A stretch of DNA of 32,000 bases from Nostoc sp. PCC 7120 = FACHB-418 (GTDB taxonomy: Bacteria; Cyanobacteriota; Cyanobacteriia; Cyanobacteriales; Nostocaceae). A program made the position numbers and the translations under genes. This document shows positions 9,529 through 28,913 of the stretch, piece by piece (position 1 is the stretch's first letter; each line of letters opens with the position of its first letter). The DNA lies in assembly GCF_000009705.1 (NCBI RefSeq), contig NC_003240.1, positions 30,001 to 62,000 on the forward strand. The letters are read 5' to 3'. Below the pieces are notes generated by a model. It searched no databases. It had not been told where the DNA came from and saw only the letters and a program-made list of their open reading frames with translations.

Positions 9529-10419
9529 GTGAGCTTAACATCTGAATTAAAAAATAGAAATTCACCTATAAGGGCATGGTTTGACTCTAGACTAAACCAG
9601 ACAGTTATTAAAATGATTACTAGCCATAATCAACTATTAGAAAATCAAGAAATTATCAGAGCAGTTGATGGTGTAGATTTTCCATTGGTAGGAAATGCGA
9701 TCGCCAAAGCACTTGCTAAATATTTAGGAAGCATCTATGAAGATAAAACATGGTTTACTAATTGCCTTGCTCAGGTTGGAGCCAAAGCCCTAAAAATAGA
9801 ATATGCTTTTGATTACTGCATTACAAATTCAACTTCCCTTGAAGAAGAAGCTCTAAAGTGTATGCTGCTGGGTGCATTAGAAAATTATGCGCGTAGCCGT
9901 AACGTTCATGAAATTATTCAACCTTTTCTACAAGGAGAAAAAACCCTTCAACTTGAACCAGAATACTTCAAAAAATGGCTTCCTAGTATTCAAGATACAT
10001 CTCAAATTATCGGTATTTTACCCCGTACTTGGCAAACTGTAGCTAATCAAGTGAATGGAAATATCACCTGCAATGCTTCGTACCCTTTAAGTGAATATCT
10101 TGGAGGTGCTGATTGCCAGATAATCGCTGGAAATACTCTTATTGATGTACGAACAACTGCCAAGAAGCGTCCCTTCTCTCTACAAAATTTTTACCAACAA
10201 ATTAGTTATGTTCTGCTTGATAGCAATGACACCTATCGTATCAATCAACTAGTCTGGTTTTACAGCCGCCAACAATCAGTATTCTTCTATCCCACAAACA
10301 AAATATTCCGCAACTTGCGAGCAACAAGGGAAGAATTTAAGAAAATGATTCTTGATAATTATAAAATAAATAAACTAGCAGAACACAATAGGTGTTTATA
10401 TCTTCCCCAAGAAGGATAA
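9529..10419 (+). CDS. hypothetical protein, possible PD-(D/E)xK-fold nuclease-like
   Basis: 296-aa ORF with a GTG start. The segment GGADCQIIAGNTLIDVRTTAKK resembles the D...(D/E)xK[T] core (hhDhKT) with Arg in place of Lys. The assignment is weak. Confidence 0.45.
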   Translation: MSLTSELKNRNSPIRAWFDSRLNQTVIKMITSHNQLLENQEIIRAVDGVDFPLVGNAIAKALAKYLGSIYEDKTWFTNCLAQVGAKALKIEYAFDYCITNSTSLEEEALKCMLLGALENYARSRNVHEIIQPFLQGEKTLQLEPEYFKKWLPSIQDTSQIIGILPRTWQTVANQVNGNITCNASYPLSEYLGGADCQIIAGNTLIDVRTTAKKRPFSLQNFYQQISYVLLDSNDTYRINQLVWFYSRQQSVFFYPTNKIFRNLRATREEFKKMILDNYKINKLAEHNRCLYLPQEG

Positions 10420-10423
10420 GAAT

Positions 10424-10624
10424 ATGATTCAAGATTTTCAACTTAACCCTAGTTTCAATATTTACTTTGAGGGCATGGAGTATCACGCTAAGATCCACTT
10501 TGATGATGCTTTTGAAACTGAAGCAGAAGAAATTGCAGCAAGTGATATTAGCACTCTTGCTGCTAAAGTCTCTAACCGTTGGCGGCAGTATCTTCTAAGT
10601 ATTGCAAATAAATATAAGCAGTAA
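10424..10624 (+). CDS. small acidic hypothetical protein (66 aa)
   Basis: ATG lies 4 nt after the upstream stop, and a hairpin follows at 10636-10655. No family recognised. Confidence 0.4.
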   Translation: MIQDFQLNPSFNIYFEGMEYHAKIHFDDAFETEAEEIAASDISTLAAKVSNRWRQYLLSIANKYKQ

Positions 10625-10697
10625 TCGAACAATTAGCCCTCTCCAAGCAGAGGGTTAACTTAACAAATAAAATTCAAAATTTGCTTGTTTAAATACT

Positions 10698-12116
10698 ATG
10701 AAAGTAGGTTTCTATCCAGTACTAGGTAAGAGCGATTTTGTCAGAAGCAAGGGTGAAAAAATCCCGATTTGGCAGTTGCTTGAGTATCAGCCTGCGGGCT
10801 GGCTATACTCACTCGCTACAAAAGCAGAAATTGTTCCAGATAGTCTGATTATTCATGACTGTGGGTCGTTTAACTACCGCGACCAAGATATTCCTACTCT
10901 CAACGGTAAATATGTTGATGCCCACTGGTCTATTCATAGATATCGAGAACGTTCAAAAGTTGGCGATATTATTGTTTGTCCTGACCATTTACTTGTAGGG
11001 GAAAATATTAGAGAACGGCAAGAATATAACCTTCAACAAGCAAAAACATTTATCCAACTTGCTAAAACTTATCTTCCCAATAGAATCCCCCTAGCAGTCA
11101 TCCACGGGCAGTCTCTTAGTGAACGCCTCGAAGTAGCAAAATATCTTCTGGGGCTGGGATACCGCCATCTCGGTATCGGTGGCCTTGTTCCCCAGGCGAG
11201 GGAGTATTCAACTAACTTGCACATTATCAAAACAATCACTGAGGTTGTGCGTTCACGAAGTGACTCGGAACGAGTATCGCCGTTCGCGAAGCGTGTCCGA
11301 CAGGACAAGGCGGGCGTTTCGCGATCGCACAGCGACTCCGCAGGAGTATCGCACGAGCCAAATGTTCATCTACACGTTTTTGGACTATGTTCGCCTCAGT
11401 ATGCCAAAGCTTTTACTCAGATGGGATTATCCTTTGATGGTTCAACTTTTATCCGAGAAGGACTAGGCGGTGGGATGTTCGTCAGCCACGAGGAAAAATT
11501 AATTCGGATGCCAGCTTACTGCACGCCAAAGTGCAACTGTCATGTTTGCAGGGTTCTCAACCGACATAGGATTGACCCTCGGCTAACAAACAAAGGACGG
11601 ACGCATACTATGGGAAGAATCGTCCACAACCTCAATCTGGCGATCGGCACTTACAGAAAGTTCACTCCCAAGGAAAAAATCTACCTGGTTGCTGGATGTG
11701 GCAAGCAGCTTCCCTACTCTGCTGCCGCCAAAGACTTATATTGTTCGCAGCACTTTCAAGCTGGCCGTCGCTACGTAGAAGAAAAAGAATCAAGATGGTA
11801 TATCCTGTCACCTTTACATCAAGTTCTTAACCCAGAAACAATCATCAAGCCCTACGATAAATCCCCCTATTCCTTATCTCATCAGGAACGTATACTATGG
11901 GCGCAACAAGTAGCAGAAAACCTCATACAAGTTGCATCTTTGGAAATAGAGTTTGTGTTCTTGACGGGCAAGCTTTACAGACAGGAGGTAACACCCATTT
12001 TACAAGCGAAGGGATACGAGATAAAAGTACCTATGCAGCACCTAGCGATTGGACAGCAACTTGCTTGGATAAAGAAGGAACTGGAGCAAGAAAAACAGCT
12101 TGTTTTAAATATTTAA
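10698..12116 (+). CDS. tRNA-guanine transglycosylase superfamily (DpdA-like) protein fused to a C-terminal DUF6884-like domain
   Basis: TGT hallmarks are present: IIHDCGSF (cf. DSGGF), LGIGGLVP, the Zn site CNCHVC (CxCxxC, nt 11532-11549) and then IVHNLN. The C-terminal ~140 aa are KIYLVAGCGKQ..AKDLYCSQHF..WYILSPLHQVLNPETIIKPYDKS..LTGKLYRQ..IGQQLAWI. These fit the DUF6884 pattern as I remember it. Confidence 0.7.
   Translation: MKVGFYPVLGKSDFVRSKGEKIPIWQLLEYQPAGWLYSLATKAEIVPDSLIIHDCGSFNYRDQDIPTLNGKYVDAHWSIHRYRERSKVGDIIVCPDHLLVGENIRERQEYNLQQAKTFIQLAKTYLPNRIPLAVIHGQSLSERLEVAKYLLGLGYRHLGIGGLVPQAREYSTNLHIIKTITEVVRSRSDSERVSPFAKRVRQDKAGVSRSHSDSAGVSHEPNVHLHVFGLCSPQYAKAFTQMGLSFDGSTFIREGLGGGMFVSHEEKLIRMPAYCTPKCNCHVCRVLNRHRIDPRLTNKGRTHTMGRIVHNLNLAIGTYRKFTPKEKIYLVAGCGKQLPYSAAAKDLYCSQHFQAGRRYVEEKESRWYILSPLHQVLNPETIIKPYDKSPYSLSHQERILWAQQVAENLIQVASLEIEFVFLTGKLYRQEVTPILQAKGYEIKVPMQHLAIGQQLAWIKKELEQEKQLVLNI
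11253..11360. repeat. GC-rich small dispersed repeat block inserted in frame in the TGT-like gene
   Basis: ~108 nt of high GC contain a HIP1 site (11321-11328). Two imperfect direct repeats are present: AGTGACTCGGAACGAGTATCGC and AGCGACTCCGCAGGAGTATCGC. The block encodes RSRSDSERVSPFAKRVRQDKAGVSRSHSDSAGVSHE between two conserved TGT blocks. Confidence 0.65.
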
Positions 12117-12144: not shown

Positions 12145-12987
12145 ATGGAGACTACAAAGCGAGTAATTAATATAAGTGGAAAATTCGGTAGTTGGACTGT
12201 ATTAGAAAAACAAGGAAAGCAAGTATTGTGTAAGTGTGATTGTGGAATTCAAAAACTTGTCTATAGTCACACTCTCACCAATGGTCGCTCAACTAACTGC
12301 GGTTGTAAGAAAAGAAAAGAATCTATCCCAGTTGGTGCAAATTTTGGGAGACTAACAGTAATATCTGATGTAGAAGTTAAGGGGAAAAGGGGTGAACTAC
12401 TCCTCCTTACCTTATGCAGATGCGGAATCCAAAAATATGTTAGTAAAAATAGCTTAAAAAGAGGTCTTACGCAAAGTTGCGGCTGTTTGCAACGCGACAG
12501 CCTCAAGACCGATAAAACTATCCACGGTCACTGCAAAAGCCACGAGTATAACTCCTGGTTACACATCAAGCGTATCTGCTATAACAAGAACCACCATCAG
12601 TACAAATATCATGGCGGGTGTGGAATTGAAGTTGATGCATCCTGGCGTGATAATTTTACCCAATTTCTAAAAGATATGGGATTAGCACCCGAAGGAACAG
12701 TTATATCTCGTATTGATCAAGAGAGTGATTTTGCCCCCGAAAATTGTTTATGGATACCCAGAAAAGAACATTATCGTCAAATACATTTATTAAGAAGAAG
12801 AGAATTCTTTATTTCTCCAACTTTACCTAAACCAGTTGTTACCAATAGTGAGATTAATGTTTCACCAAACATTGTTCGAGCAATCATTAAAGAGCATGCA
12901 AATGGTGAAGCCAACATGAATAAACTTGCTACACAATATAAAATCAGCACTCAAGACGCAATAAATATTATCCTTCACCACGTTTAA
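12145..12987 (+). CDS. duplicated Cys-rich Zn-ribbon protein with phage-type conserved module and C-terminal HTH-like tail
   Basis: Two repeats are seen: CKCDCGIQKLVYSHTLTNGRSTNCGC and CRCGIQKYVSKNSLKRGLTQSCGC. The block HEYNSWLHIKRICYNKNHHQYKYHGGCGIEVDASWRDNFTQFLKDMGLAPEGTVISRIDQESDFAPENCLWIPRKEH follows. This matches a motif pattern (Y..W..M..RC...Y..YGGRGI.V...W..F..F..DMG..P.G.S.DRID..G.Y.P.NC.W) common in phage and plasmid ORFs. Confidence 0.6.
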   Translation: METTKRVINISGKFGSWTVLEKQGKQVLCKCDCGIQKLVYSHTLTNGRSTNCGCKKRKESIPVGANFGRLTVISDVEVKGKRGELLLLTLCRCGIQKYVSKNSLKRGLTQSCGCLQRDSLKTDKTIHGHCKSHEYNSWLHIKRICYNKNHHQYKYHGGCGIEVDASWRDNFTQFLKDMGLAPEGTVISRIDQESDFAPENCLWIPRKEHYRQIHLLRRREFFISPTLPKPVVTNSEINVSPNIVRAIIKEHANGEANMNKLATQYKISTQDAINIILHHV

Positions 12988-13006: not shown

Positions 13007-13046
13007 AAAAGTGCGCCATCAATTAAAAAGGCGCACTTTTTATTTT
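13007..13046 (+). terminator. Rho-independent terminator
   Basis: Stem AAAAGTGCGCC (13007-13017) pairs with GGCGCACTTTT (13030-13040) across a 12-nt loop. It is followed by TTTTTATTTT and lies 20 nt after the stop at 12987. Confidence 0.8.
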
Positions 13047-15470: not shown

Positions 15471-16211
15471 ATGACACTCATAGACGGACAATTAATACGA
15501 GAACACGTAAAGCAAGAATGTCAAAAATACAAATCTATTTTTCAAGCATCTCAAAAAGAAGTAGCAATCATCAGATTTGAGGCTTCAGAAAATGCCAGCA
15601 ACGGACTAAGAGCTAGATACGAAGCAGCCAGAATATCAGCAGAACAAAAAGTAGCAACATTCAACGCTATTGGCATTACTCCCAATTATATTGCGCTGTC
15701 AGCCAATATTGCAGTAGAGCAATTTGACAACATTATCCAATCCATTAATGAAAATAGCAAGGTGACTGCTGCTATTGTTCAATACCCAATTCCAGCTAAG
15801 TTTACAAGTTCAATTCAGCTATTAGAACCACAAAAAGATATAGATATCGTCCGCAGACAAAGTAACAATTTCTTTGAAAGTTGTGCTACTGCTGAAGGAA
15901 TCGCCAGAATTGTTGAATCCTACGCACAAAGGGATTCCAATGTTGCAGTTGTCGGCGGAGGTGGTTTTGTAGGTAATGGTGTCATCAAATATTTAGAAGC
16001 CAGTAGAATCAGCTGTTTCTGTTTGGAAGACGGTGATGACTTGAGTAGAACTCAAGCAGCTGACATTGTGGTATCAGTCACCGGAAGACAAGGAATTTTC
16101 ACTCCTTATGTACTCCCGTCTCATCGCTTGATTGTCGATGGTGGCTTTACACCTACTGCTTCTGGTGCTGCTGGGGATGTAGATCGCAGTGCTTATACCG
16201 TTTCACTTTAA
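15471..16211 (+). CDS. divergent FolD-like (methylene-THF dehydrogenase/cyclohydrolase fold) protein, N-terminal 246 aa; gene appears split
   Basis: FolD landmarks occur in order: LIDGQ, AAIVQYPIPA, PQKDIDI, CATAEGI, VAVVGGGGFVGNGV, ADIVVSVTG, IVDGGF and GDVD. The stop TAA (16209-16211) falls exactly where the conserved ITPVPGGVGP block should soon follow. Confidence 0.6.
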   Translation: MTLIDGQLIREHVKQECQKYKSIFQASQKEVAIIRFEASENASNGLRARYEAARISAEQKVATFNAIGITPNYIALSANIAVEQFDNIIQSINENSKVTAAIVQYPIPAKFTSSIQLLEPQKDIDIVRRQSNNFFESCATAEGIARIVESYAQRDSNVAVVGGGGFVGNGVIKYLEASRISCFCLEDGDDLSRTQAADIVVSVTGRQGIFTPYVLPSHRLIVDGGFTPTASGAAGDVDRSAYTVSL

Positions 16212-16293
16212 GTTTGATACAAGTAAGTCGCAGGGGGGCAGGGGGCAGAGAGCAGAGGGAAAGAATTAAAAACCATTAATTTGTATCAATATT
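16210..16293. repeat. MITE-like insert: imperfect 13-nt terminal inverted repeats around a G-rich heptad-like core
   Basis: AAGTTTGATACAA (16210-16222) pairs with TTGTATCAATATT (16281-16293), with a perfect 9-bp core TTGATACAA/TTGTATCAA. The core is GCAGGGG GGCAGGG GGCAGAG AGCAGAG (16230-16257). Confidence 0.5.
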
Positions 16294-16296
16294 TTC

Positions 16297-16776
16297 GTGA
16301 ATTGGTATTACAGCATCCCCCAGAACATTACGCCCGTCCCTGGAGGTGTTGGCCCGATAGAAATGGCAATTTTAGCAGAACGTTTGGTAAAAATGGATTT
16401 GGGCGTAGAACTTGGGAAATGGAACTACCAGCAATTACAGCAAGAACAAATGCAACGCGCTACTATAATTGCCCCCATAGCTAGAGTGTTCTTCGCACAG
16501 CAAGCAACTGCCTATCCTCAATCCATTCGCACAGAGAGAGAAAACCTATTTGTCTTGGAAGGCAGTAACTACCAGATCCGCTTCAATAGCACCACGCAAA
16601 GTTTGATTGTTGCCAGAACCAATGAAAAGCTAACGTTAATTCGGCTATCTCTTGCAAGTAATCAAATTGAAACCGCTAGAGGTATAACAAACGAGGATGT
16701 AACAAGATGGCAACAAATTCAAGCTGCGATCGATTCAACAACAACGCAATCAAATGATAGAGGTATGGAGCTTTGA
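16297..16776 (+). CDS. FolD-like C-terminal fragment (ITPVPGGVGPIEMAIL) plus ~110-aa extension of unknown function
   Basis: The GTG-start ORF is in a different frame from 15471-16211. It begins with the FolD signature block IPQNITPVPGGVGPIEMAILAERL. Confidence 0.55.
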   Translation: MNWYYSIPQNITPVPGGVGPIEMAILAERLVKMDLGVELGKWNYQQLQQEQMQRATIIAPIARVFFAQQATAYPQSIRTERENLFVLEGSNYQIRFNSTTQSLIVARTNEKLTLIRLSLASNQIETARGITNEDVTRWQQIQAAIDSTTTQSNDRGMEL

Positions 16777-17700: not shown

Positions 17701-20421
17701 ATGAACCAGCCTGAATGGTTAGAAGCAAACAAGCAGGTTTATTCCAAAGAACATGGTGTTATACATATCGCCGCCATCATTGAGAAAAACCTTTACTTTA
17801 AAAAAGGCAGTTTAAATCAAATTATTTTCGACTGGGAGCATGAGGTAAATAGTGGTAATTTATTACCTCTAAACCAAGCACCAACAGGTAAAAGCATTCT
17901 CTACCAAGAGATAGCTGCTATACTTGATGGATCGGGAAAATTACAAAGCTGCGAAGTAATTCCTGCTCAAGAAGCTAAACTTTATCCCATCCCAGATGAT
18001 ATTCACCCTCTAGTTAAACTGGCTTTAAGTAAGTCAGGAATCACCCAACTATACTCTCATCAAGTGGAGGCATGGCAAGCTTACAAAAAAGGAAAAGATA
18101 TAATTCTCCAAACTCCTACTAGCAGTGGTAAAAGTATCTCTTTTCTCATTCCAATCATTCACGAGTGTCTAAAGGGTAAATCAGCTTTAGTATTCTTTAA
18201 CTTGAAAGCACTTGCATTTGACCAGGTAGAGAAAATACGTTCCTTTGTTAGCCACTTAGATGAAAATATTCGCCCCCAAATTCTCAATATTAATGGAGAT
18301 ATTCCTCCACAAGAGCGCAAACTACTTTACAGCAATCAACCCTCAATTTTATGCGTGACTCCTGATGTATGGAACCACGAGCTAAACAACTACCAATTCG
18401 ATTCAAATTGGGGATTTAGAGAAACAATCAGAAAACTTTCAATCATTGTCTGTGACGAAATGCACTTTTATCAAGGCATATTTGGTTCGCATTTTGCACT
18501 ACTTAATCGGCGAACTCAACTTATGATAGAATCTGTCGGCAATGATATTTCCAAATTACAGTACATCTTCGCTTCTGCAACAATTAGTAACAGCAGTGAA
18601 ATTGCCCAGAAGATATCTAATCGAGAAGAACAAAGTAATCTTGCTATTATTGACCAAAGTGGGGCAAAACGCTCGGAGATTACTTTTATTAGCCTCAAAC
18701 CACGGAACAATACATTTTACCAAACTGCCCAATTCGCAGCTATGCTCGTAAGTAAAGGCATCGTCGGGATTTGTTTCTGCGATAGTAGAGAACTAGTTAA
18801 GGTTTTAACTAATGCCATCCGTAAAGCTTTAATCGAGATGCAACTGCCCCATCTGGGAGAAAGCATCTCAGCATTTTATGGGAGCATGAAGGCAAATCAG
18901 CGTAACAAAATTATTGCAGATATACAAAGCGGGAAGGTCAAGTTCATTATATCTACAAGTGCTTTGGAAGCGGGTCTAGATATTGGGTGTATTGATGCAA
19001 CTATCGTACATAGTTACCCCGGCTCAATTCTTGCCTTTCGCCAGAGGGCAGGACGTGCGGGGAGGCAGGAAGCAGGACTATTGGTGTTTATTCCGTCGAA
19101 AAGGTCGATTATGGATTCTTACTACGCCAATTACCCAGAACGCCTTTTATCTGATCCTCCAGAAATTATCAACTTTAACCACAATTATGAAACAACTTTA
19201 GAGCAGCATATTCTCGCTTGTTGCAAGGAAAGTAAACCGACACAGGCTCAAATTGCCCGACATTTTGGTAGTTCTGGTAATGCGATCGCCCGACAGTTAA
19301 TCGGTAATAATCAACTGATCTTCAGCTACAATCAAAGACTGACAACTAATCGAAATCTCGGTTATGTCCATTCAAAAATTAAAGTTAGAGGCAACACCAA
19401 TCAAAACATCAGTTATATTAATCAAGATAGCGCAGAAGAGTTTGAGGAAAGTTCGGCATCTTCTGCACTAAGAGAAGTTTACCCTGGTGCCATATATCTT
19501 GCTCAAGATTTTGATGGCAATCCCGTACAGTATAAATCACAAGAGCTAAATTTAACCGAAGGGAAAGCAATTCTCAAGCCAATAGAGGCAACCAATTTAT
19601 TTAGTCGTCCTGAAGGAAGTCTAAATTTCGAGGAAATTAAAATTGTTGGGGAAGCCAAAATTATCAATCTTCCCCAAGGGGCTGCTAGATTTACACCTGT
19701 TTCAGCCAAAATCAAAGAAGAAATTTATGGCTACAACTTGTACAGGCTGGAACAAAAATGGACTTGCACTAATAACAGATGTCGCAACTTCAATTTAAAT
19801 TTAACTGGGCATTTACAAACTTGCCCTGCTTGTAAAATCCAACTGATTGAACGAGAATTTGTCGAACTATTGGAGGAAAATAAATACGAAGAATCACTTG
19901 CTCTTAACTACAATACATTCTGCGTCAGGGTTGAAATTAACGCTGATGCACGAAAATATTTTTCAGTTTTGGTCAAAAATCACAGAAAAGAAATACTTAA
20001 TAAACAGAAATATATTACCAATGAGGAGAAACAACTATTTGAAAGCAATGAAACCCAAATTTGCGTTCATACTCTCGCTCATCACCTTATACTCAGTTTA
20101 CCACTTGTCGAACATGGAGCAAACAGTCGAGATATAGATTTCATGTTAGTAGAAGTGCCGTCTAATACTAAGATAGTTGGCTATTTCTTTGATACTTGTG
20201 AACATGGTACAGGTATGTGTGATACCCTCATCAAGTATTTAGAGACTGCCTTTATTAAGGCAAAGTTCCTAGTCGATAATTGTCCTTGTAAATACGGCTG
20301 CTCTTCTTGTACAACAATTCAACGCTGTCCTGATGATAACGAAGCACTGTTTAAATCAGTTGGGTTATCTCTACTAAAGGAAATAATCAATCCAATAGAG
20401 ACAAGAACTATTAATCAATAG
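17701..20421 (+). CDS. DEAD/DEAH-box (SF2) helicase with internal Zn-ribbon and C-terminal DUF1998/MZB domain (MrfA/YprA/DrmB-like architecture)
   Basis: Motif I QTPTSSGKS, motif II CDEMH, motif III SATISN, motif V STSALEAGLDIG and motif VI FRQRAGRAGR are all present. There is a Zn-ribbon CTNNRC...CPAC. The C-terminal HTLAHHL...YFFDTCEHGTGMC...CPCKYGCSSCTTIQRCPDDNEAL is typical of DUF1998. Confidence 0.85.
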   Translation: MNQPEWLEANKQVYSKEHGVIHIAAIIEKNLYFKKGSLNQIIFDWEHEVNSGNLLPLNQAPTGKSILYQEIAAILDGSGKLQSCEVIPAQEAKLYPIPDDIHPLVKLALSKSGITQLYSHQVEAWQAYKKGKDIILQTPTSSGKSISFLIPIIHECLKGKSALVFFNLKALAFDQVEKIRSFVSHLDENIRPQILNINGDIPPQERKLLYSNQPSILCVTPDVWNHELNNYQFDSNWGFRETIRKLSIIVCDEMHFYQGIFGSHFALLNRRTQLMIESVGNDISKLQYIFASATISNSSEIAQKISNREEQSNLAIIDQSGAKRSEITFISLKPRNNTFYQTAQFAAMLVSKGIVGICFCDSRELVKVLTNAIRKALIEMQLPHLGESISAFYGSMKANQRNKIIADIQSGKVKFIISTSALEAGLDIGCIDATIVHSYPGSILAFRQRAGRAGRQEAGLLVFIPSKRSIMDSYYANYPERLLSDPPEIINFNHNYETTLEQHILACCKESKPTQAQIARHFGSSGNAIARQLIGNNQLIFSYNQRLTTNRNLGYVHSKIKVRGNTNQNISYINQDSAEEFEESSASSALREVYPGAIYLAQDFDGNPVQYKSQELNLTEGKAILKPIEATNLFSRPEGSLNFEEIKIVGEAKIINLPQGAARFTPVSAKIKEEIYGYNLYRLEQKWTCTNNRCRNFNLNLTGHLQTCPACKIQLIEREFVELLEENKYEESLALNYNTFCVRVEINADARKYFSVLVKNHRKEILNKQKYITNEEKQLFESNETQICVHTLAHHLILSLPLVEHGANSRDIDFMLVEVPSNTKIVGYFFDTCEHGTGMCDTLIKYLETAFIKAKFLVDNCPCKYGCSSCTTIQRCPDDNEALFKSVGLSLLKEIINPIETRTINQ

Positions 20422-23543: not shown

Positions 23544-24272
23544 ATGCTTGGCAACATCCACTCATTCAAAATACCCATTACTTGTATAACAGCAATTAAT
23601 TATCTAGAAAATCTTTCCGAACAAGTAAATATTTTAAGCCTGTATCAAAAATTATTTCCAGAAAAATGGTTAGAATCAACTATTCCTATTAATAAACAAT
23701 CACATCCATCAAGTGCTTACCTAGATAGAGAAATTGAATTTATTAACCTAGTGAATGAAAATCTATTCCCAGTAGAATATATCGATGAAATCGAGTTTAA
23801 TTCTGAACGTGATAGTATTCTAGTTTCGCCACAAAGACTTGAGTGGTGGAATGAAGATTTTGAAGAACTGGTATACTCGGAGAAGTTCCTACTGTCATTG
23901 ATGGGGCAAGGGTACAATATCAGCCAATGGAAACTAAATTTTGGTTTTACTCCTGATTACATTGCTCCAGCAGAAGAAATTTACTTCGAGAAATTCGTAA
24001 AGCTGTGTCGTCGTTACAAAAATCCCCTGCAATATTTAGATATAGCCATACAAATTATAGATTACTCAACTGAAAATATTTGGCTAGATATTACGTGTGA
24101 AACAAGCGATTGGCTGGACTGGACTTATGAGAATATCGTATTTCTCGCTCAAAAGTGGCAAGAAGCCGTCTCGATGATGGAGAAATCAAATGAGGTTAGC
24201 CATTTGTTAGAAACATCTCTTTCTGCTCGAAAAGCAGCAGTAAAAATTTGGAACCAAGCATCAAAAGCATGA
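23544..24272 (+). CDS. hypothetical protein in the position of PRTRC protein F
   Basis: 242-aa acidic ORF. Its stop overlaps the start of the E2-like gene (ATGA at 24269-24272). A hairpin GCCGCTA-N7-TAGCGGC lies just upstream at 23514-23534. No motif recognised. Confidence 0.5.
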   Translation: MLGNIHSFKIPITCITAINYLENLSEQVNILSLYQKLFPEKWLESTIPINKQSHPSSAYLDREIEFINLVNENLFPVEYIDEIEFNSERDSILVSPQRLEWWNEDFEELVYSEKFLLSLMGQGYNISQWKLNFGFTPDYIAPAEEIYFEKFVKLCRRYKNPLQYLDIAIQIIDYSTENIWLDITCETSDWLDWTYENIVFLAQKWQEAVSMMEKSNEVSHLLETSLSARKAAVKIWNQASKA

Positions 24273-24991
24273 ATGTAGATACAAATATATTACCAATAAT
24301 TAACTTAGAAAATATCTCCCAAATTCTGCTAGCCAATATTCCCCAAGATGATTTACTAGGGCAGTTAATTATCCTCAAAGGACAGTTTATTTTAGTCGAA
24401 CGCGAAGGCAAAGAGTCTAAATACAAATTCTTGTCTCCTGAAGCAGTAGAGAAAGCCTTCACAAGTAAAACTGCCGCATCTGGATGGCTTTCTAGCAACA
24501 CAATTTGGTGGGGTAAAAATCCAGAGGGAGAGGCCATTATTCAGTTTTACTCTCCCCAAAAATATCAAATTCAAATTATGGGACAGGAAACTGAAGTAAT
24601 TACTGTCCCTATGCCTGCATTCCTATTTGCTGGATGCGGTAGTAGATATTACCTGTGGGCAGTTAAAGGGAGGGTATTTAAACCAGACGCACAACTGTAC
24701 AAGCCCCCTCTACCTAACGTTTGGGAAGATTCTAGCATTTGCTTTGGGGGAAATTCTCTCAGTATGTGCAGTGCTGCAACCATAAGCCAAGTTTGGGATC
24801 TGTTCTGGAAATCACCTTTTAACAAGGACTTATCTCAAGGCAAGTCAAAAACTCATCCTGATAATATCTGCAATCAACTAATCAAATTACACGAATCTAA
24901 AGCTAAATCCTACCCTTCAAGTGACCTTGTTCCCGTTCATAGCTGGAAAGTCACAACCCCAGAAGACATTATCAATCATTTGTTCAGTTAA
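24269..24991 (+). CDS. E2/UBC-like protein (PRTRC protein B-like), candidate catalytic Cys in PPLPNVWEDSSICFGGN
   Basis: ATG at 24269 overlaps the upstream TGA (the ORF track gives TTG at 24248). Motif LPNV-x6-IC resembles the E2 HPN...C active-site spacing. The Cys codon is at 24740-24742. Confidence 0.5.
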   Translation: MNVDTNILPIINLENISQILLANIPQDDLLGQLIILKGQFILVEREGKESKYKFLSPEAVEKAFTSKTAASGWLSSNTIWWGKNPEGEAIIQFYSPQKYQIQIMGQETEVITVPMPAFLFAGCGSRYYLWAVKGRVFKPDAQLYKPPLPNVWEDSSICFGGNSLSMCSAATISQVWDLFWKSPFNKDLSQGKSKTHPDNICNQLIKLHESKAKSYPSSDLVPVHSWKVTTPEDIINHLFS

Positions 24992-24993
24992 CA

Positions 24994-25590
24994 ATGAATC
25001 CTTTTATCGGCTATCACCTCGCTACAAGTAATAACTTTCCTCCCTACAGTCAAAAACTCCAGGAATACTGGCTGGCAGCAAATGGGCTTTTCTTGCGATC
25101 GCATCGTCGCGAGTTAGAGGTTTGCTTGCAACTGTCTCAAACTCAAGTTGCTGGACTCCAACCCCTTGAACCCTACTTCCGTCTGAAAGTCCCAAAAGTT
25201 CCTTGCCAAGCGATCGCCGAGATTATCAATGCTGCTAGTATCAACCCCCAACAGGAAATCCTATTCTACTTGGGAGTGACAAACGACCAATGGTGGTGTC
25301 ACACACCACTGCAAACTGCGTCCTCTACTCACGTCTTATCTTTAGAAAGCGCACTTGATAAAAGCTATACAGATGGCTTGGTAGAAATGCACAGTCATGG
25401 AACTCTAGCTGCTTATCCTTCAAGTGCAGACAATCAGGAAGAAAAAGGCAAATTTCGAGTGTTCGCAATCATTGGCACGCTGAATAACATTCCCACAATT
25501 TATACCCGCATCGGGATATACAATCACTTTTTCGACATCAACCCCAATCAAATATTTGAACTGCCCCCACAGGTAAAATGCTTGAATTAA
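24994..25590 (+). CDS. JAB/MPN (JAMM) metallopeptidase (PRTRC protein A-like)
   Basis: Perfect JAMM motif HSHGTLAAYPSSAD (HxHx7Sx2D, nt 25390-25431). An upstream Glu candidate lies in QQEILFY. Confidence 0.8.
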   Translation: MNPFIGYHLATSNNFPPYSQKLQEYWLAANGLFLRSHRRELEVCLQLSQTQVAGLQPLEPYFRLKVPKVPCQAIAEIINAASINPQQEILFYLGVTNDQWWCHTPLQTASSTHVLSLESALDKSYTDGLVEMHSHGTLAAYPSSADNQEEKGKFRVFAIIGTLNNIPTIYTRIGIYNHFFDINPNQIFELPPQVKCLN

Positions 25591-26369
25591 CTACTTACCA
25601 ACAAGCTTTACCCGTCTTACCTCGCAATCATACTCGTATCAACTTTGTTTTAGTGGGAGTAGGAGGAACAGGCGGGTTTCTTGCAGAAGATTTATGTCGA
25701 ATTATTCTGCAACTCCAGCGCACTAGGAAAGAAATTAACTTTGCGATCGTTGATGGCGATACTGTCGAACTCAAAAATATCAGCCGCCAAAATTATCAAC
25801 AAGCTGAAATTGGACTACCAAAGGCAGAAACACTGGCTGCAAGATGCAGTGCCAAGTATGGAATAGAGATTACAGCCGTTTGCGACTGGTTTGAAGAAGA
25901 CATGATTCGCACAGCCAGTTGGTGGAATACCCTAACGGTAATTATTGGCTGTGTAGATAACAGCACAGCCAGGAGCAAAATTCACTCTGTTCTCAAAATC
26001 AACAGTGCAAATGAGCCAGCATCTCTATTTTGGCTGGATTGTGGAAACAGCAACTACTCTGGACAAGTAGTAATTGGAACGCACTCTAATTTTGATATAG
26101 TCCAAGCTTCCAATAACCCAGACAAACCTCAATTCTGGTTGCATCTTCCCTCCCCGGTGCTGGTTCACCCAGAACTGCTACTTCCTCAGCCAGAAGAACT
26201 TAGCGACAACAATCTTTCATGTGCAGAAATCCAAGCACGGAATTATCAATCACTATTCGTCAATAAAATGACGAGTGCGATCACAGCCCAGTATCTACTA
26301 GAATTAACCCTCACTGGGGGGTTGAAAAAGTTCGCTAGTACACCTCGGCGTAAATCAGCAGACCATTAA
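25578..26369 (+). CDS. ThiF/MoeB/E1-like adenylyltransferase (PRTRC ThiF-like), 3' end disrupted by IS insertion at 26337/26338
   Basis: Rossmann loop LVGVGGTGGF, then VDGDTVELKNISRQNY and GCVDNSTARSKI. The last 9 codons (TPRRKSADH*) are IS-derived. The native 31-codon tail is found at 28982-29079. Confidence 0.8.
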   Translation: MLELTTYQQALPVLPRNHTRINFVLVGVGGTGGFLAEDLCRIILQLQRTRKEINFAIVDGDTVELKNISRQNYQQAEIGLPKAETLAARCSAKYGIEITAVCDWFEEDMIRTASWWNTLTVIIGCVDNSTARSKIHSVLKINSANEPASLFWLDCGNSNYSGQVVIGTHSNFDIVQASNNPDKPQFWLHLPSPVLVHPELLLPQPEELSDNNLSCAEIQARNYQSLFVNKMTSAITAQYLLELTLTGGLKKFASTPRRKSADH

Positions 26370-26427: not shown

Positions 26428-27740
26428 GAGAACTGCACAGAATGATTGATCCTATGATCAGAGAAAGATAATTTCAGTGTGCAGCCTACCTCATGTCTCC
26501 AAAATCTATCATTCAACTCACAGAGAACCTAAAATCTCTTTACATCAAAACAGCGAAAAAACTCAAGGGAAGCGACCGACGACAATTCATGGCAGAAGTG
26601 GTCAAAGGTTTGGGAATTGGTGGACAGACTTTAGTAGAACGCGAGTTGGGATGGAATAGGCGTACTATCCGTAAAGGGATGCAGGAGTTGGAGAGTGGCA
26701 AGCCTTTTATTGATGGTTTTGAGCGTAGTGGACGTAAGCGGGTGGAAACAAAATTACCAAACTTGTTGGAGGATATTAAATCGTTAGTAGACCCACAAAC
26801 TCAAACTGACCCCAGTTTTAAGAGTACACGCTTATATACACGCATGACGGCAAGTGTTGTACGTCGTCAACTAATTGAACAATTTGGTTACAGTGACAAA
26901 GAACTACCTTCATCAGAGACAATTCGACGACGATTGAATGATTTGGGTTATACCTTAAAACGAGTTCTGAAAACCAAGCCTATCAAGAAGATTCCAGAAA
27001 CAGAAGCCATTTTTGAACAAGTCGAGCAAATTAATACTGAAGCTGATAATGACCCTCATACTCTCCGGATCTCCATTGATGCGAAGGTGGCAGTCAAGAT
27101 TGGAGAGTTTGACCGAGGTGGTAAAACTCGAATCCCAACTACCTCATTAGACCACGACTTTCCGACCGAGATGACTCTGATTCCCTACGGCATTTTTATA
27201 CCTGAGTACAACGAGTTATTTTTATTTTTCGTTTCTTCCAAATTAACTGCTGATTGTATTGTTGACTTGCTTGAAAGCTGGTGGCAAAATGTCAAACACC
27301 GATTTGCTCATATTCAAAAACTGGTAATTAATCAAGATAATGGACCGGAAAATCATTCTCGTCGCACTCAGTTTATGAAGCGGGTTGTAGATTTTAGCAC
27401 ATCATCTCAACTGACGTTACAACTTGCTTATTATCCGCCGTATCATAGCAAATACAACCCAATAGAACGTTGCTTTGGTTGGTTAGAACAGCATTGGAAT
27501 GGTAGTTTACTTGACACCGTTGAGACCGTACTGAATTTCGCCCAAACTCTCACATTTAAGGGTAAAAATCCGGTTGTCACACTGGTAGAAAAAGTTTACT
27601 CCACAGGAGTTAAACTTACAACTTCAGCTATGGAAGAAATTGAAACCCAGATTAACCGCCTCCCCAATCTCAAAAAATGGTTTGTGGAAATTTTTGCTAA
27701 ACCAGCATAGCTATTGGATCATCTTTTTTGTGGAGTTCTC
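26428..27740 (+). mobile_element. ISAzo13-family insertion sequence nested inside the IS630 transposase gene, TAA target duplication
   Basis: Ends are GAGAACTGCACA (26428-) and TGTGGAGTTCTC (-27740). TAA sits at 26425-27 and 27741-43. Removing the element restores the IS630 ORF ...FIDYF|NKTMAKPFKWTYKGKVLAI*. Confidence 0.8.
26493..27710 (+). CDS. ISAzo13-family DDE transposase
   Basis: 405-aa intact ORF. The N-terminal region ([36 protein letters not shown]) and the DDE region (ISIDAK...[11 protein letters not shown]...[17 protein letters not shown]) fit the family as I remember it. Confidence 0.8.
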
Positions 27741-28365
27741 TAAAGTAGTCAATAAATTTGAGGATTCGATTTTTCAAATCATCTTGACTGAGGAAACTGG
27801 CTCTTCTGAGTAACTTGCGAACCAAAATACTGAACCAAATCTCAATTTGATTGAGCCACGAAGAATGTTTGGGTGTGTAATGAAACACAATTCGGTGTGC
27901 TGGGTCACTCAAAAAAGTAGTGCGGGATTTCATTGATTTAAGGATACCACTTTCTCCCTTTATACCCAGGTCAAGATTCAAACCTTCTTTTTCTGCAACT
28001 AAACGAACTAGAGACTCAGACTGATGAGTGTTCAAGCAGTCCATAATGAGATGCCATTTTTTAGCCTGGGTATCAGTTTCAATTGTTCGACGAATATGAA
28101 GAGCAAAATCAATTTCTGTTCTGGTATCTGAACAAGTCGGCTCGACAATTTGACCTGTGGCAACATCGAAGCTGGCAATTAAGCTTTGTGTACCGTGACG
28201 AATATACTCAAATTCCCTTCTTTCGACTTTGCCTGGTCGCATTGGCAAGTCTTTTTCTAATCGCTCAGTAGCTTGAATACCTGTCATTTCATCAATCGAT
28301 ATTGTCCGTTCCCCCTTTATATGACGTTCGATTGCACTGATGTATAAACCAGTAATATCTTCCAC
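27697..28365 (-). pseudogene. IS630-family transposase, DDE catalytic part (orfB), C-terminus replaced by the ISAzo13 junction
   Basis: DDE_3-type blocks [11 protein letters not shown] and [12 protein letters not shown]...[19 protein letters not shown] are present. Homology stops at FIDYF (~27744), and the following [14 protein letters not shown] is read from the ISAzo13 end. Confidence 0.75.
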
Positions 28366-28913
28366 CTTTGCATCAAATTCTTCATCTTGAGGGGGGGGGT
28401 TAACCAGTAGCGGCTCTGGTGGGGTTTAAGTTCTGCTTCTTCAAGTAATCTTCCCAGATGGCGAATAGATATGCTTTCAATAATTCCTTGTTTGATGATT
28501 TCGTCCGTTAGTTCTCTTACCGTCCAATGACTTATTGGTCTTCCGTAATCGGATGGTGGAGAACAAGCTAATGCAAACAACTCGATTACTTGTTCCATAC
28601 TAAACTTTGGGCGTGCGCCAACACGCTCAGAGTCTTGTAATCTTTGCTCAATTAATAATTCTTTCCCCTCAGTTTCTAACCATCGGTTTCGCCATAAACG
28701 CGCCGTTTGCCGATTGACATCTAAATTTCGGGCAATTTCACGATGATTTTGACCCTCTGATGCCATGAGAATTATTTTGGCTCGTAGTGCTATCTGTTGC
28801 GGCGTGTTGTGTCTGTTTATCAACTTTTGGAGTTGATCTCGTTCGCCATCGCTTAAATTTAATATTTTAGGAGTTAATCTAGCCACACCCTGATTCCTTG
28901 ATCCGTAACCCAA
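28317..28913 (-). pseudogene. IS630-family transposase, N-terminal HTH part (orfA)
   Basis: Contains the helix-turn-helix / homeodomain-like regions typical of IS630/Tc1. It ends just after a C9 tract (plus-strand G9 at 28390-28398), where the reading frame shifts. Confidence 0.75.

Follow-up and report, generated by a model that had tools for sequence, protein, structure and literature searches.

In a 32,000-nucleotide stretch of Nostoc sp. PCC 7120 DNA (contig NC_003240.1, positions 30,001 to 62,000; called the window here), the open reading frame (ORF) list contains a 472-residue ORF at positions 10698-12116 on the plus strand that joins a DpdA-like transglycosylase to a domain of the DUF6884/DpdC family, as judged from hidden Markov model (HMM) matches, a PDB sequence match, an AlphaFold model and Foldseek. 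We think it somewhat probable that this fusion is a self-contained two-step enzyme for 7-deazaguanine modification of DNA. Read in this way from its sequence, it would represent the Dpd modification pathway compressed into a single protein of a short transglycosylase clade, free of the DpdB ATPase, carried on conjugative plasmids and with an altered DpdC-family active site. In the proposed mechanism the N-terminal half would be a minimal DpdA-type enzyme that exchanges particular guanines in double-stranded DNA for preQ0 (7-cyano-7-deazaguanine), by double displacement as in DpdA, with Asp247 as nucleophile and Asp54 as general acid/base, the preQ0 presumably coming from the pool of the host queuosine pathway. 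The DUF6884 domain would then act on the inserted base, most simply by hydrating its nitrile to the amide (dADG, 2'-deoxy-7-amido-7-deazaguanosine) or, given its remodelled motifs, by making some other derivative or only binding and flipping the base. DpdB would not be required, as for phage DpdAs, and the mark would most likely shield the DNA of the large Nostocales conjugative plasmids that carry the gene from restriction or other DNA-sensing defences.

The N-terminal domain (residues 1-325, positions 10698-11672; coordinates are on the plus strand unless stated otherwise) has a short form of the tRNA-guanine transglycosylase (TGT) fold, and it matched the DpdA models of both NCBIfam (NF041059, E=1.4e-13, 50.4 bits, over residues 48-184 only) and PADLOC (E=8.6e-14). 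A PDB sequence search with the fusion protein returned a single chain, 7ui4, which is the DpdA of Salmonella enterica serovar Montevideo (S. Montevideo; E=7.7e-7), and the sequence matched no NCBIfam tRNA-TGT model and no TGT chain in the PDB. Likewise, an AlphaFold2 model built from 17 homologues, with a mean predicted local distance difference test score (pLDDT) of 85 and only one longer disordered stretch (residues 189-220, pLDDT <50), gave 7ui4 as its top Foldseek match in the PDB (E=9.6e-11), followed by archaeosine TGT (ArcTGT), bacterial TGT (bTGT) and QTRT1, and ranks 1-36 were all DpdA, ArcTGT, bTGT or QTRT1 with a probability of 1.00. An earlier note on this DNA, made from the letters alone, had read the N-terminus as TGT/DpdA-like, and these matches bear it out; the motifs that it quoted are all present, with HDCGSF at residues 53-58, LGIGGLVP at 158-165, CNCHVC at 279-284 and HNL at 310-312.

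In S. Montevideo DpdA, Asp95 (acid/base) and Asp256 (nucleophile) are essential, and the base pocket is formed by Asp130, His181, Gly182, Gly206 and Gly207 (PMC10164549). The counterparts of D95, D130, D256, H181-G182 and G206-G207 in the fusion are D54, D96, D247, H136-G137 and G161-G162, respectively, and the pocket loop reads GGLVP in the fusion versus GGMVP in DpdA. Asp54 (10857-10859) lies in HDCGSF, which aligned to GDCGAF of 7ui4, while Asp247 (11436-11438), in SFDGST, was paired with SIDSTT in a sub-threshold segment of the alignment. Asp96 (10983-10985), in PDH, is the proposed equivalent of the base-recognising Asp130 in LDH of 7ui4, a match that was read manually, with the printed alignment offset by a three-residue gap. 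The zinc site, Cys279-x-Cys281-x-x-Cys284 together with His310 (11532-11627), aligned to KCECNIC of 7ui4. Across the 17 fusion homologues, which extend down to 35% identity, D54, D96, D247, H136/G137, G161, C279/C281/C284 and H310 are invariant, with G162 being the exception.

A TGT fold with a complete catalytic apparatus is also common to the tRNA enzymes, and would fit a tRNA-guanine transglycosylase paralogue that modifies tRNA, in a queuosine- or archaeosine-like manner, for the plasmid's benefit. We regard this as very improbable, since DpdA is matched by sequence whereas no tRNA-TGT model or PDB chain is, and since the domain is fused to one from a DNA-acting family. At ~290 residues and ~25% identity to S. 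Montevideo DpdA (416 residues), it is also shorter than both bacterial DpdA (bDpdA) and E. coli Tgt, and it has no extra RNA-binding domain such as the PUA domain of archaeal TGT. Furthermore, in a neighbour-joining tree the short-TGT family to which it belongs, its fused and stand-alone members mixed together, branched as the sister group of bDpdA at a long distance from E. coli Tgt, although this tree is rough, having no support values, a single tRNA-TGT outgroup and no phage DpdA sequences. Clustering with tRNA-specific enzymes and loss of the catalytic aspartates had been named beforehand as signs of a mistaken assignment; the tree and the invariant aspartates show neither. Sequence matches and the structural model support the assignment of the N-terminal domain as a DpdA-like, and not a tRNA-type, transglycosylase.

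One part of the domain varies in length. An insert at residues ~186-222 (11253-11363), predicted to be disordered and present in the Nostoc clade only, ranges from 0 to ~54 residues among homologues. It is GC-rich and contains a HIP1 site (GCGATCGC) as well as short inverted repeats and a 37-nt direct repeat that is imperfect, and it has the look of a small dispersed repeat of cyanobacteria that the coding region tolerates. As it interrupts the sequence of the TIM barrel, and as the gene has been lost to insertion sequence (IS) insertion in some plasmids, the fusion might be taken for a decaying relic that the repeat has disabled. We find this hardly credible, because more than 30 genomes have the ORF intact, the insert is in frame and in the model forms a disordered loop that links helix 170-190 to strand 224-227, the flanking domains are confidently folded and all catalytic residues are invariant.

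The C-terminal domain (residues 328-460, 11679-12077) matched the Pfam family DUF6884 over its full length (PF21818, profile positions 1-135 of 135, E=9.1e-42, 142.8 bits against a cut-off of 30), in agreement with the earlier description of this end as DUF6884-like. It also matched PADLOC PDC-M57A (E=3.6e-30), and in a Foldseek viral library it resembled a phage DUF6884 (template modelling score 0.70, root-mean-square deviation 1.4). According to the Pfam curators, DUF6884 combines a fold related to YaaA with the motifs CxxxK and LSAxxG and with a cleft predicted to bind DNA and flip bases (PMC11701544); DpdC was initially likened to DUF328/YaaA (PMC5699537), and the GATOR-GC genome-mining preprint assigns DUF6884 to dpdC. 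S. Montevideo DpdC turns preQ0-DNA into ADG-DNA without needing DpdA or DpdB, and the activity has been shown for that protein only. Comparison with an Enterobacter dpd island is in keeping with such a relationship: the gene upstream of dpdA encodes a bona fide DpdC (PADLOC E=6e-142), which gave sub-threshold matches to DUF6884 (6e-5) and PDC-M57A (1.7e-3) and carries both motifs, as TCTNGK just upstream of its annotated start and as ILSAGLG. Likewise, for the N-terminal domain of a 714-residue protein of Nostoc sp. NIES-3756, the matches to the DUF6884, PDC-M57A and DpdC models are of comparable strength. DpdC would thus fall within Pfam family DUF6884, and the fusion would join the enzymes that open and close the Dpd modification pathway; the earlier claim that the window lacks dpdC does not stand in that form.

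Several observations weigh against a two-step DpdA-DpdC enzyme. The score against NF041059 is far below its equivalog cut-off of 200 bits, and the Pfam TGT family PF01702 stayed below its gathering cut-off (14.7 bits versus 26.3, E=0.017), while a precomputed PF01702 match is present in more distant fusion homologues. S. Montevideo DpdA requires DpdB, yet this DGQHR/ParB-like ATPase partner was not found among the window ORFs of at least 90 residues that were scanned with Pfam, NCBIfam or PADLOC, which counts against likeness to the bacterial enzyme. No PADLOC DpdC model matched the C-terminal domain at E<=1, and hhalign of its profile with Enterobacter DpdC reached only E=3e-4 with a probability of 40%, which suggests that the domain belongs to the same superfamily as DpdC but is not its orthologue. 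Stand-alone DUF6884 proteins are common on plasmids with no nearby TGT, and this indicates that the family is not intrinsically tied to preQ0. Low-density dPreQ0 (2'-deoxy-7-cyano-7-deazaguanosine) or dADG is no block to common restriction enzymes (PMC5699537, PMC6884629), which weakens a simple anti-restriction role. Lastly, both DUF6884 signature motifs are altered throughout the Nostocales clade, and therefore nitrile hydratase activity and the final product are uncertain.

The extent of this alteration was seen when ~150 DUF6884 domains were compared. CxxxK and LSAxxG were both unchanged in 83 of ~100 stand-alone domains, nearly all of which keep CxxxK, and in all but three of ~20 fused members from outside the Nostocales, whereas the Nostocales fused sequences, 32 of 32 with the window's included, carry GCGKQ and LSPL(H/Y)x, and this holds from 96% down to 48% identity. 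In the window these clade-specific forms are GCGKQ at residues 333-337 (11694-11708), in which relative to CxxxK the cysteine is shifted one position on and the lysine one back, and LSPLHQ at residues 370-375 (11805-11822). Such changes lend weight to a reading in which DUF6884 in this clade is not a nitrile hydratase but a DNA-binding and base-flipping helper that replaces DpdB and offers the target guanine to the transglycosylase domain, the product then being dPreQ0 only or a non-ADG derivative. The base-flipping DNA binder with a YaaA-like fold modelled by the Pfam curators (PMC11701544) fits this, as do the failure to find DpdB among the scanned ORFs and the existence of close stand-alone short TGTs without DUF6884 (P0035, P0036 and P0044). 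We treat the helper as a possibility with a minority share of our confidence, because the cysteine and lysine are kept in the same loop, the L-S of the second motif is invariant and phage DpdAs need no such partner. The C-terminal domain is, in addition, better conserved than the N-terminal one at every locus compared, which argues that it is under selection. The Nostocales DUF6884 domain appears, on this evidence, to be maintained with a remodelled putative active site, and could be an ADG maker, a maker of another product or a DNA-handling domain only. Elsewhere, on cyanobacterial and haloarchaeal plasmids, stand-alone DUF6884 genes were seen directly beside GIY-YIG nuclease genes (L017:4042-5369; H40, H41), a recurrent pair that may be the PADLOC candidate system PDC-M57.

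Homologues of the fusion were searched for among 1.84 billion representative proteins, giving 3,819 relatives at E<=0.001 and ~1,150 at E<=1e-10, the best 150 of the latter being mostly DUF6884-only proteins. The 189 retrieved proteins that were classified included 55 with both domains (fragments counted) and ~30 stand-alone TGT-like proteins of ~290 residues. Full-length fusions number about a dozen among 50%-identity representatives, and two proteins of the short-TGT family (P0068 and P0054) are built the other way round, as DUF6884-TGT. Distant N-to-C fusions of 32-37% identity occur on short metagenomic contigs, and in two of these (L008, L009) the fusion is directly followed by a gene for a Vut_1/YhhQ-type queuosine-precursor transporter, while in another (L010) both QueC and Vut_1 follow, with QueC passing the TIGR00364 equivalog cut-off. 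This queC/yhhQ adjacency is the strongest independent evidence that the fusion family handles 7-deazaguanines.

Every locus examined lay in a plasmid or mobile-element context, marked by type IV secretion system (T4SS), SSB, PcfJ, ParAB or integrase genes. Short TGT genes elsewhere stand beside SSB, PcfJ, ParA/ParB, integrases, a Dam-like methyltransferase, or a HerA-like ATPase and UvrD helicase, and from these neighbours we conclude that the short-TGT family travels on mobile elements in varied company. One such locus, in a proteobacterial metagenome-assembled genome (L056:446-9072), encodes in order a distant TGT-DUF6884 fusion, a 406-residue protein of unknown type, a HerA-like (DUF87) ATPase, a 569-residue protein likewise unknown and a UvrD helicase, and it recalls the HerA/FtsK-TGT systems reported without DpdC homologues (PMC12839542). 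In phages, a tblastn search of 50,697 records with the N-terminal domain and bDpdA gave one weak match, a bDpdA-like gene in a metagenomic phage, and residues 1-325 of the fusion had no PHROG match.

As the earlier note had it, the window has no dpdB or que genes: the scanned ORFs included none that was DpdB-like and no QueC, QueD, QueE or FolE. With no que genes at hand the enzyme would have to rely on the host preQ0 pool, as was also proposed there. When the window and six related loci were scanned with Rfam for a preQ1 riboswitch or any other RNA, nothing reached the gathering score, the single match at E<1 being a spurious snoRNA. The missing DpdB and que genes have a precedent, since phage DpdAs expressed by themselves in E. 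coli put dPreQ0 into plasmid DNA with preQ0 taken from the host (PMC6884629, PMC10516641). What the analysis establishes is the fold, the catalytic residues, the identities of the two domains and the queC/yhhQ link in distant homologues; a DNA substrate, the product, independence from DpdB and the biological role of the fusion are inferred, and of these steps the anti-restriction role, while plausible, is the weakest. Anabaena and Nostoc strains strongly restrict incoming conjugal DNA (AvaI, AvaII, AvaIII), and therefore there would be a selective rationale for a protective gene. A bolder proposal, which we hold only tentatively, is that the short TGT clade is an undescribed DpdB-independent DpdA subfamily that has been fused repeatedly with DUF6884 in both orders, and that on Nostocales conjugative plasmids its remodelled DUF6884 site yields a 7-deazaguanine DNA derivative other than dADG, with which the plasmids evade the numerous restriction systems of filamentous cyanobacteria as they conjugate.

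So far, two settings have been described for 7-deazaguanine modification of DNA: phages, which use it against restriction, and the large Dpd restriction-modification islands of chromosomes. A version made of one gene and carried by conjugative plasmids would bring the chemistry to a third class of mobile element and, if the proposal is true, plasmids would for the first time be seen to use 7-deazaguanine DNA modification against host defences. Mechanistic and biotechnological work would gain a minimal enzyme that does without the DpdB ATPase, and the large and uncharacterised DUF6884 family would gain a functional anchor, namely action on a DpdA product. We found no literature description of a TGT-DUF6884 or DpdA-DpdC fusion, or of DpdA on conjugative plasmids or its anti-restriction use there, in a search that did not take in the 2016 PNAS paper defining dpd, so that an earlier mention is possible. 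Carriers such as Trichormus variabilis ATCC 29413 and Tolypothrix/Fremyella PCC 7601 are in culture and open to genetic manipulation, which makes the prediction directly testable.

The genes around the fusion recur with it. In ~25 Nostocales loci the order is the T4SS coupling protein (T4CP), an 829-residue protein, orf296, orf66, the fusion and a 280-residue gene. The C-terminal half of the orf296 product (9529-10419) is PD-(D/E)xK nuclease-like, with weak PADLOC matches and invariant D195, D206-x-R208 and QQxxY227, the lysine of PD-(D/E)xK being replaced by an invariant arginine; it had no Pfam, NCBIfam or PDB match, and its homologues are found only in cyanobacteria, upstream of fused genes, downstream of stand-alone short TGTs beside SSB, and also apart from either. 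orf66 (10424-10624, 66 residues) is conserved in the Nostocales block, at 81-97% identity in ~25 loci and 52% in L051, and had no family match in Pfam, NCBIfam, PADLOC or PHROG scans. The 280-residue gene (12145-12987) begins 28 nt after the fusion and encodes an HNH-like protein with two zinc-ribbon repeats, a core that matches phrog_374 (HNH endonuclease, 1e-48) and a C-terminal helical domain that looks helix-turn-helix-like by eye. In this core, again read by eye, (S/I)RID stands at the place expected for the catalytic histidine, and the model of the protein (pLDDT 89) had no PDB fold match at E<0.001, with a PDB sequence search also empty. The gene is conserved beside the fusion in two further loci (L004, L005), and the adjacency is kept where the fusion is only 48% identical; it also occurs without the fusion, directly after the 829-residue homologue in Chlorogloea and alone on Brasilonema pBOCT2 (L011, L012). 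An intrinsic terminator at 13007-13046 closes the block and is as strong as had been claimed, with a U run after its 11-bp stem (dG -16.4 kcal/mol, z=-6.1); its 12-nt loop caused a simple terminator scan to miss it, and it was confirmed by direct folding.

These co-oriented genes, with their short gaps and strong terminator, could be read as a compact Dpd-like restriction-modification or addiction system, in which the fusion marks self and a flanking nuclease-like protein cuts unmarked DNA. That bDpdA, the closest characterised relative, operates in a restriction-modification system speaks for this, and so do the PD-(D/E)xK-like invariant residues of orf296 and its place beside short TGTs in two gene orders, the PHROG match of the downstream gene and its persistence beside a fusion of 48% identity, and the distant fusion found next to a HerA-like ATPase and UvrD helicase. 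We none-the-less consider it rather unlikely. In plasmids of Aulosira laxa NIES-50 and Scytonema NIES-4073 a transposase stands in place of the fusion, yet both orf296 and the HNH-like gene are still of full length, which argues against classical killing of unmodified cells. The HNH-like gene is found without the fusion in Chlorogloea and Brasilonema, in Iningainema the fusion and an orf296 homologue are on separate contigs, neither neighbour accompanies the distant fusions, and the HNH-like protein has (S/I)RID instead of the expected catalytic histidine and a model with no significant PDB nuclease match. The HNH-like gene was also considered as an obligate partner and dropped as such, as it stands alone in Chlorogloea/Brasilonema and intact beside a destroyed fusion. 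Both orf296 and the HNH-like gene are frequent, but not obligate, neighbours of the fusion. The suggestion that these genes form one module holds in part: the two are frequently next to the fusion, yet each can also be found where there is none.

The window is 96% identical to MOBP/MPF_T conjugative plasmids of 215-300 kb from Tolypothrix PCC 7601/7712, Microchaete, Nostoc and Trichormus variabilis ATCC 29413, which agrees with its earlier placement on a conjugative element, and the fusion protein is 96% identical to the homologue P0001. The plasmid orthologues are annotated only as 'DUF6884 domain-containing protein', as for WP_011316853.1 of T. variabilis plasmid C, or as 'hypothetical protein', with the transglycosylase domain having been missed. 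Upstream of the fusion the window encodes TrbI/VirB10 and the T4SS coupling protein, and downstream there are a FolD-like gene, a family 2 (GT2) glycosyltransferase, a DEAD/MZB helicase, a primase-polymerase, an E2/JAB/ThiF cassette and two insertion sequences. The dpdD-dpdK restriction genes were not found in the window, which does not hold a complete Dpd island, and all that lies nearby is a generic DEAD/MZB helicase ~5.6 kb downstream of the fusion, with weak PADLOC matches to DpdF and DpdJ. Within the 73-nt gap between orf66 and the fusion there is a perfect 6-bp GC-rich hairpin (CCCTCT...AGAGGG, 10637-10654) with no T run after it on the plus strand. In Calothrix brevissima NIES-22 (L020, AP018207.1 4629961-4647376) the whole block from the T4CP to the downstream gene is present at 96-97% identity in an 8.5-Mb record labelled as a nearly complete genome and not as a plasmid, which suggests an integrated copy or an assembly join.

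Other features of the window lie further downstream. The FolD-like gene (methylene-tetrahydrofolate dehydrogenase/cyclohydrolase, 15471-16776) adjoins the GT2 glycosyltransferase and is present as two ORFs split by a ~112-bp insertion, while on a Tolypothrix PCC 7712 plasmid the gene is intact at 396 residues (L015:26761-27951), and it is probably disrupted in the window. The helicase (17701-20421) is intact at 906 residues, has DEAD, Helicase_C and MZB (MrfA zinc-binding) domains and gave its best PADLOC matches to BrxHI and SngC; its Tolypothrix PCC 7712 orthologue is split by an IS701 transposase. Downstream of the primase-polymerase, a cassette at 24248-26369 holds Prok-E2_D, JAB deubiquitinase-like and ThiF/E1-like genes and resembles a PRTRC-type ubiquitin-like system. 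It is followed at 26493-28913 by back-to-back insertion sequences, with an ISAzo13-type DDE transposase on the plus strand and an IS630-like helix-turn-helix and DDE_3 transposase on the minus strand.

Compared with known systems, the C-terminal domain of the fusion is a full-length member of the DUF6884/YfjM/PDC-M57A group by HMM and by fold, but most of that group are stand-alone proteins of ~140 residues with CxxxK and LSAxxG, often beside GIY-YIG nucleases, whereas the window's domain is fused and has both motifs changed. Phage DpdA1-DpdA4 (PMC6884629, PMC10516641) are, like the proposed enzyme, stand-alone DNA transglycosylases on mobile elements; they are DpdB-free, can use host preQ0 and protect from restriction when modification is dense. 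The similarity of the fusion to phage TGT-like proteins is at the fold level only, with matches that include uncharacterised proteins of Vibrio phage nt-1 and Cellulophaga phage phiST, and the further chemistry in phage systems is carried out by Gat-QueC, ArcS, QueF, DpdL, DpdM or DpdN and not by DUF6884. The S. Montevideo module of DpdA, DpdB and DpdC (7UI4; PMC10164549) shares with the fusion the three aspartates, His-Gly, the Gly-Gly loop and the zinc site, together with a DpdC-family (DUF6884-related) domain and preQ0 from the queuosine pathway as the expected substrate. It differs in that the window has both domains on one 472-residue chain with a TGT part of ~290 instead of 416 residues, has neither the DpdB ATPase nor the DpdD-K operon, has remodelled DpdC-family motifs and belongs to a conjugative plasmid and not a chromosomal island. 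Comparable, too, is WP_331711066.1 of Nostoc sp. NIES-3756 plasmid pNOS3756_2 (714 residues, annotated as DpdA by the Prokaryotic Genome Annotation Pipeline), which is likewise a fusion of DUF6884/DpdC-like and DpdA domains on a cyanobacterial plasmid. Its domains are in the opposite order, its DpdA is a canonical full-length bDpdA (PADLOC 1e-127) and its CxxxK and LSAxxG motifs are canonical; unlike the fusion in the window, it is accompanied by two DEAD/DEAH helicases and a second TGT of 315 residues, with no DpdB annotated (L003:7849-16366), and this locus looks like a different compact cyanobacterial dpd variant.

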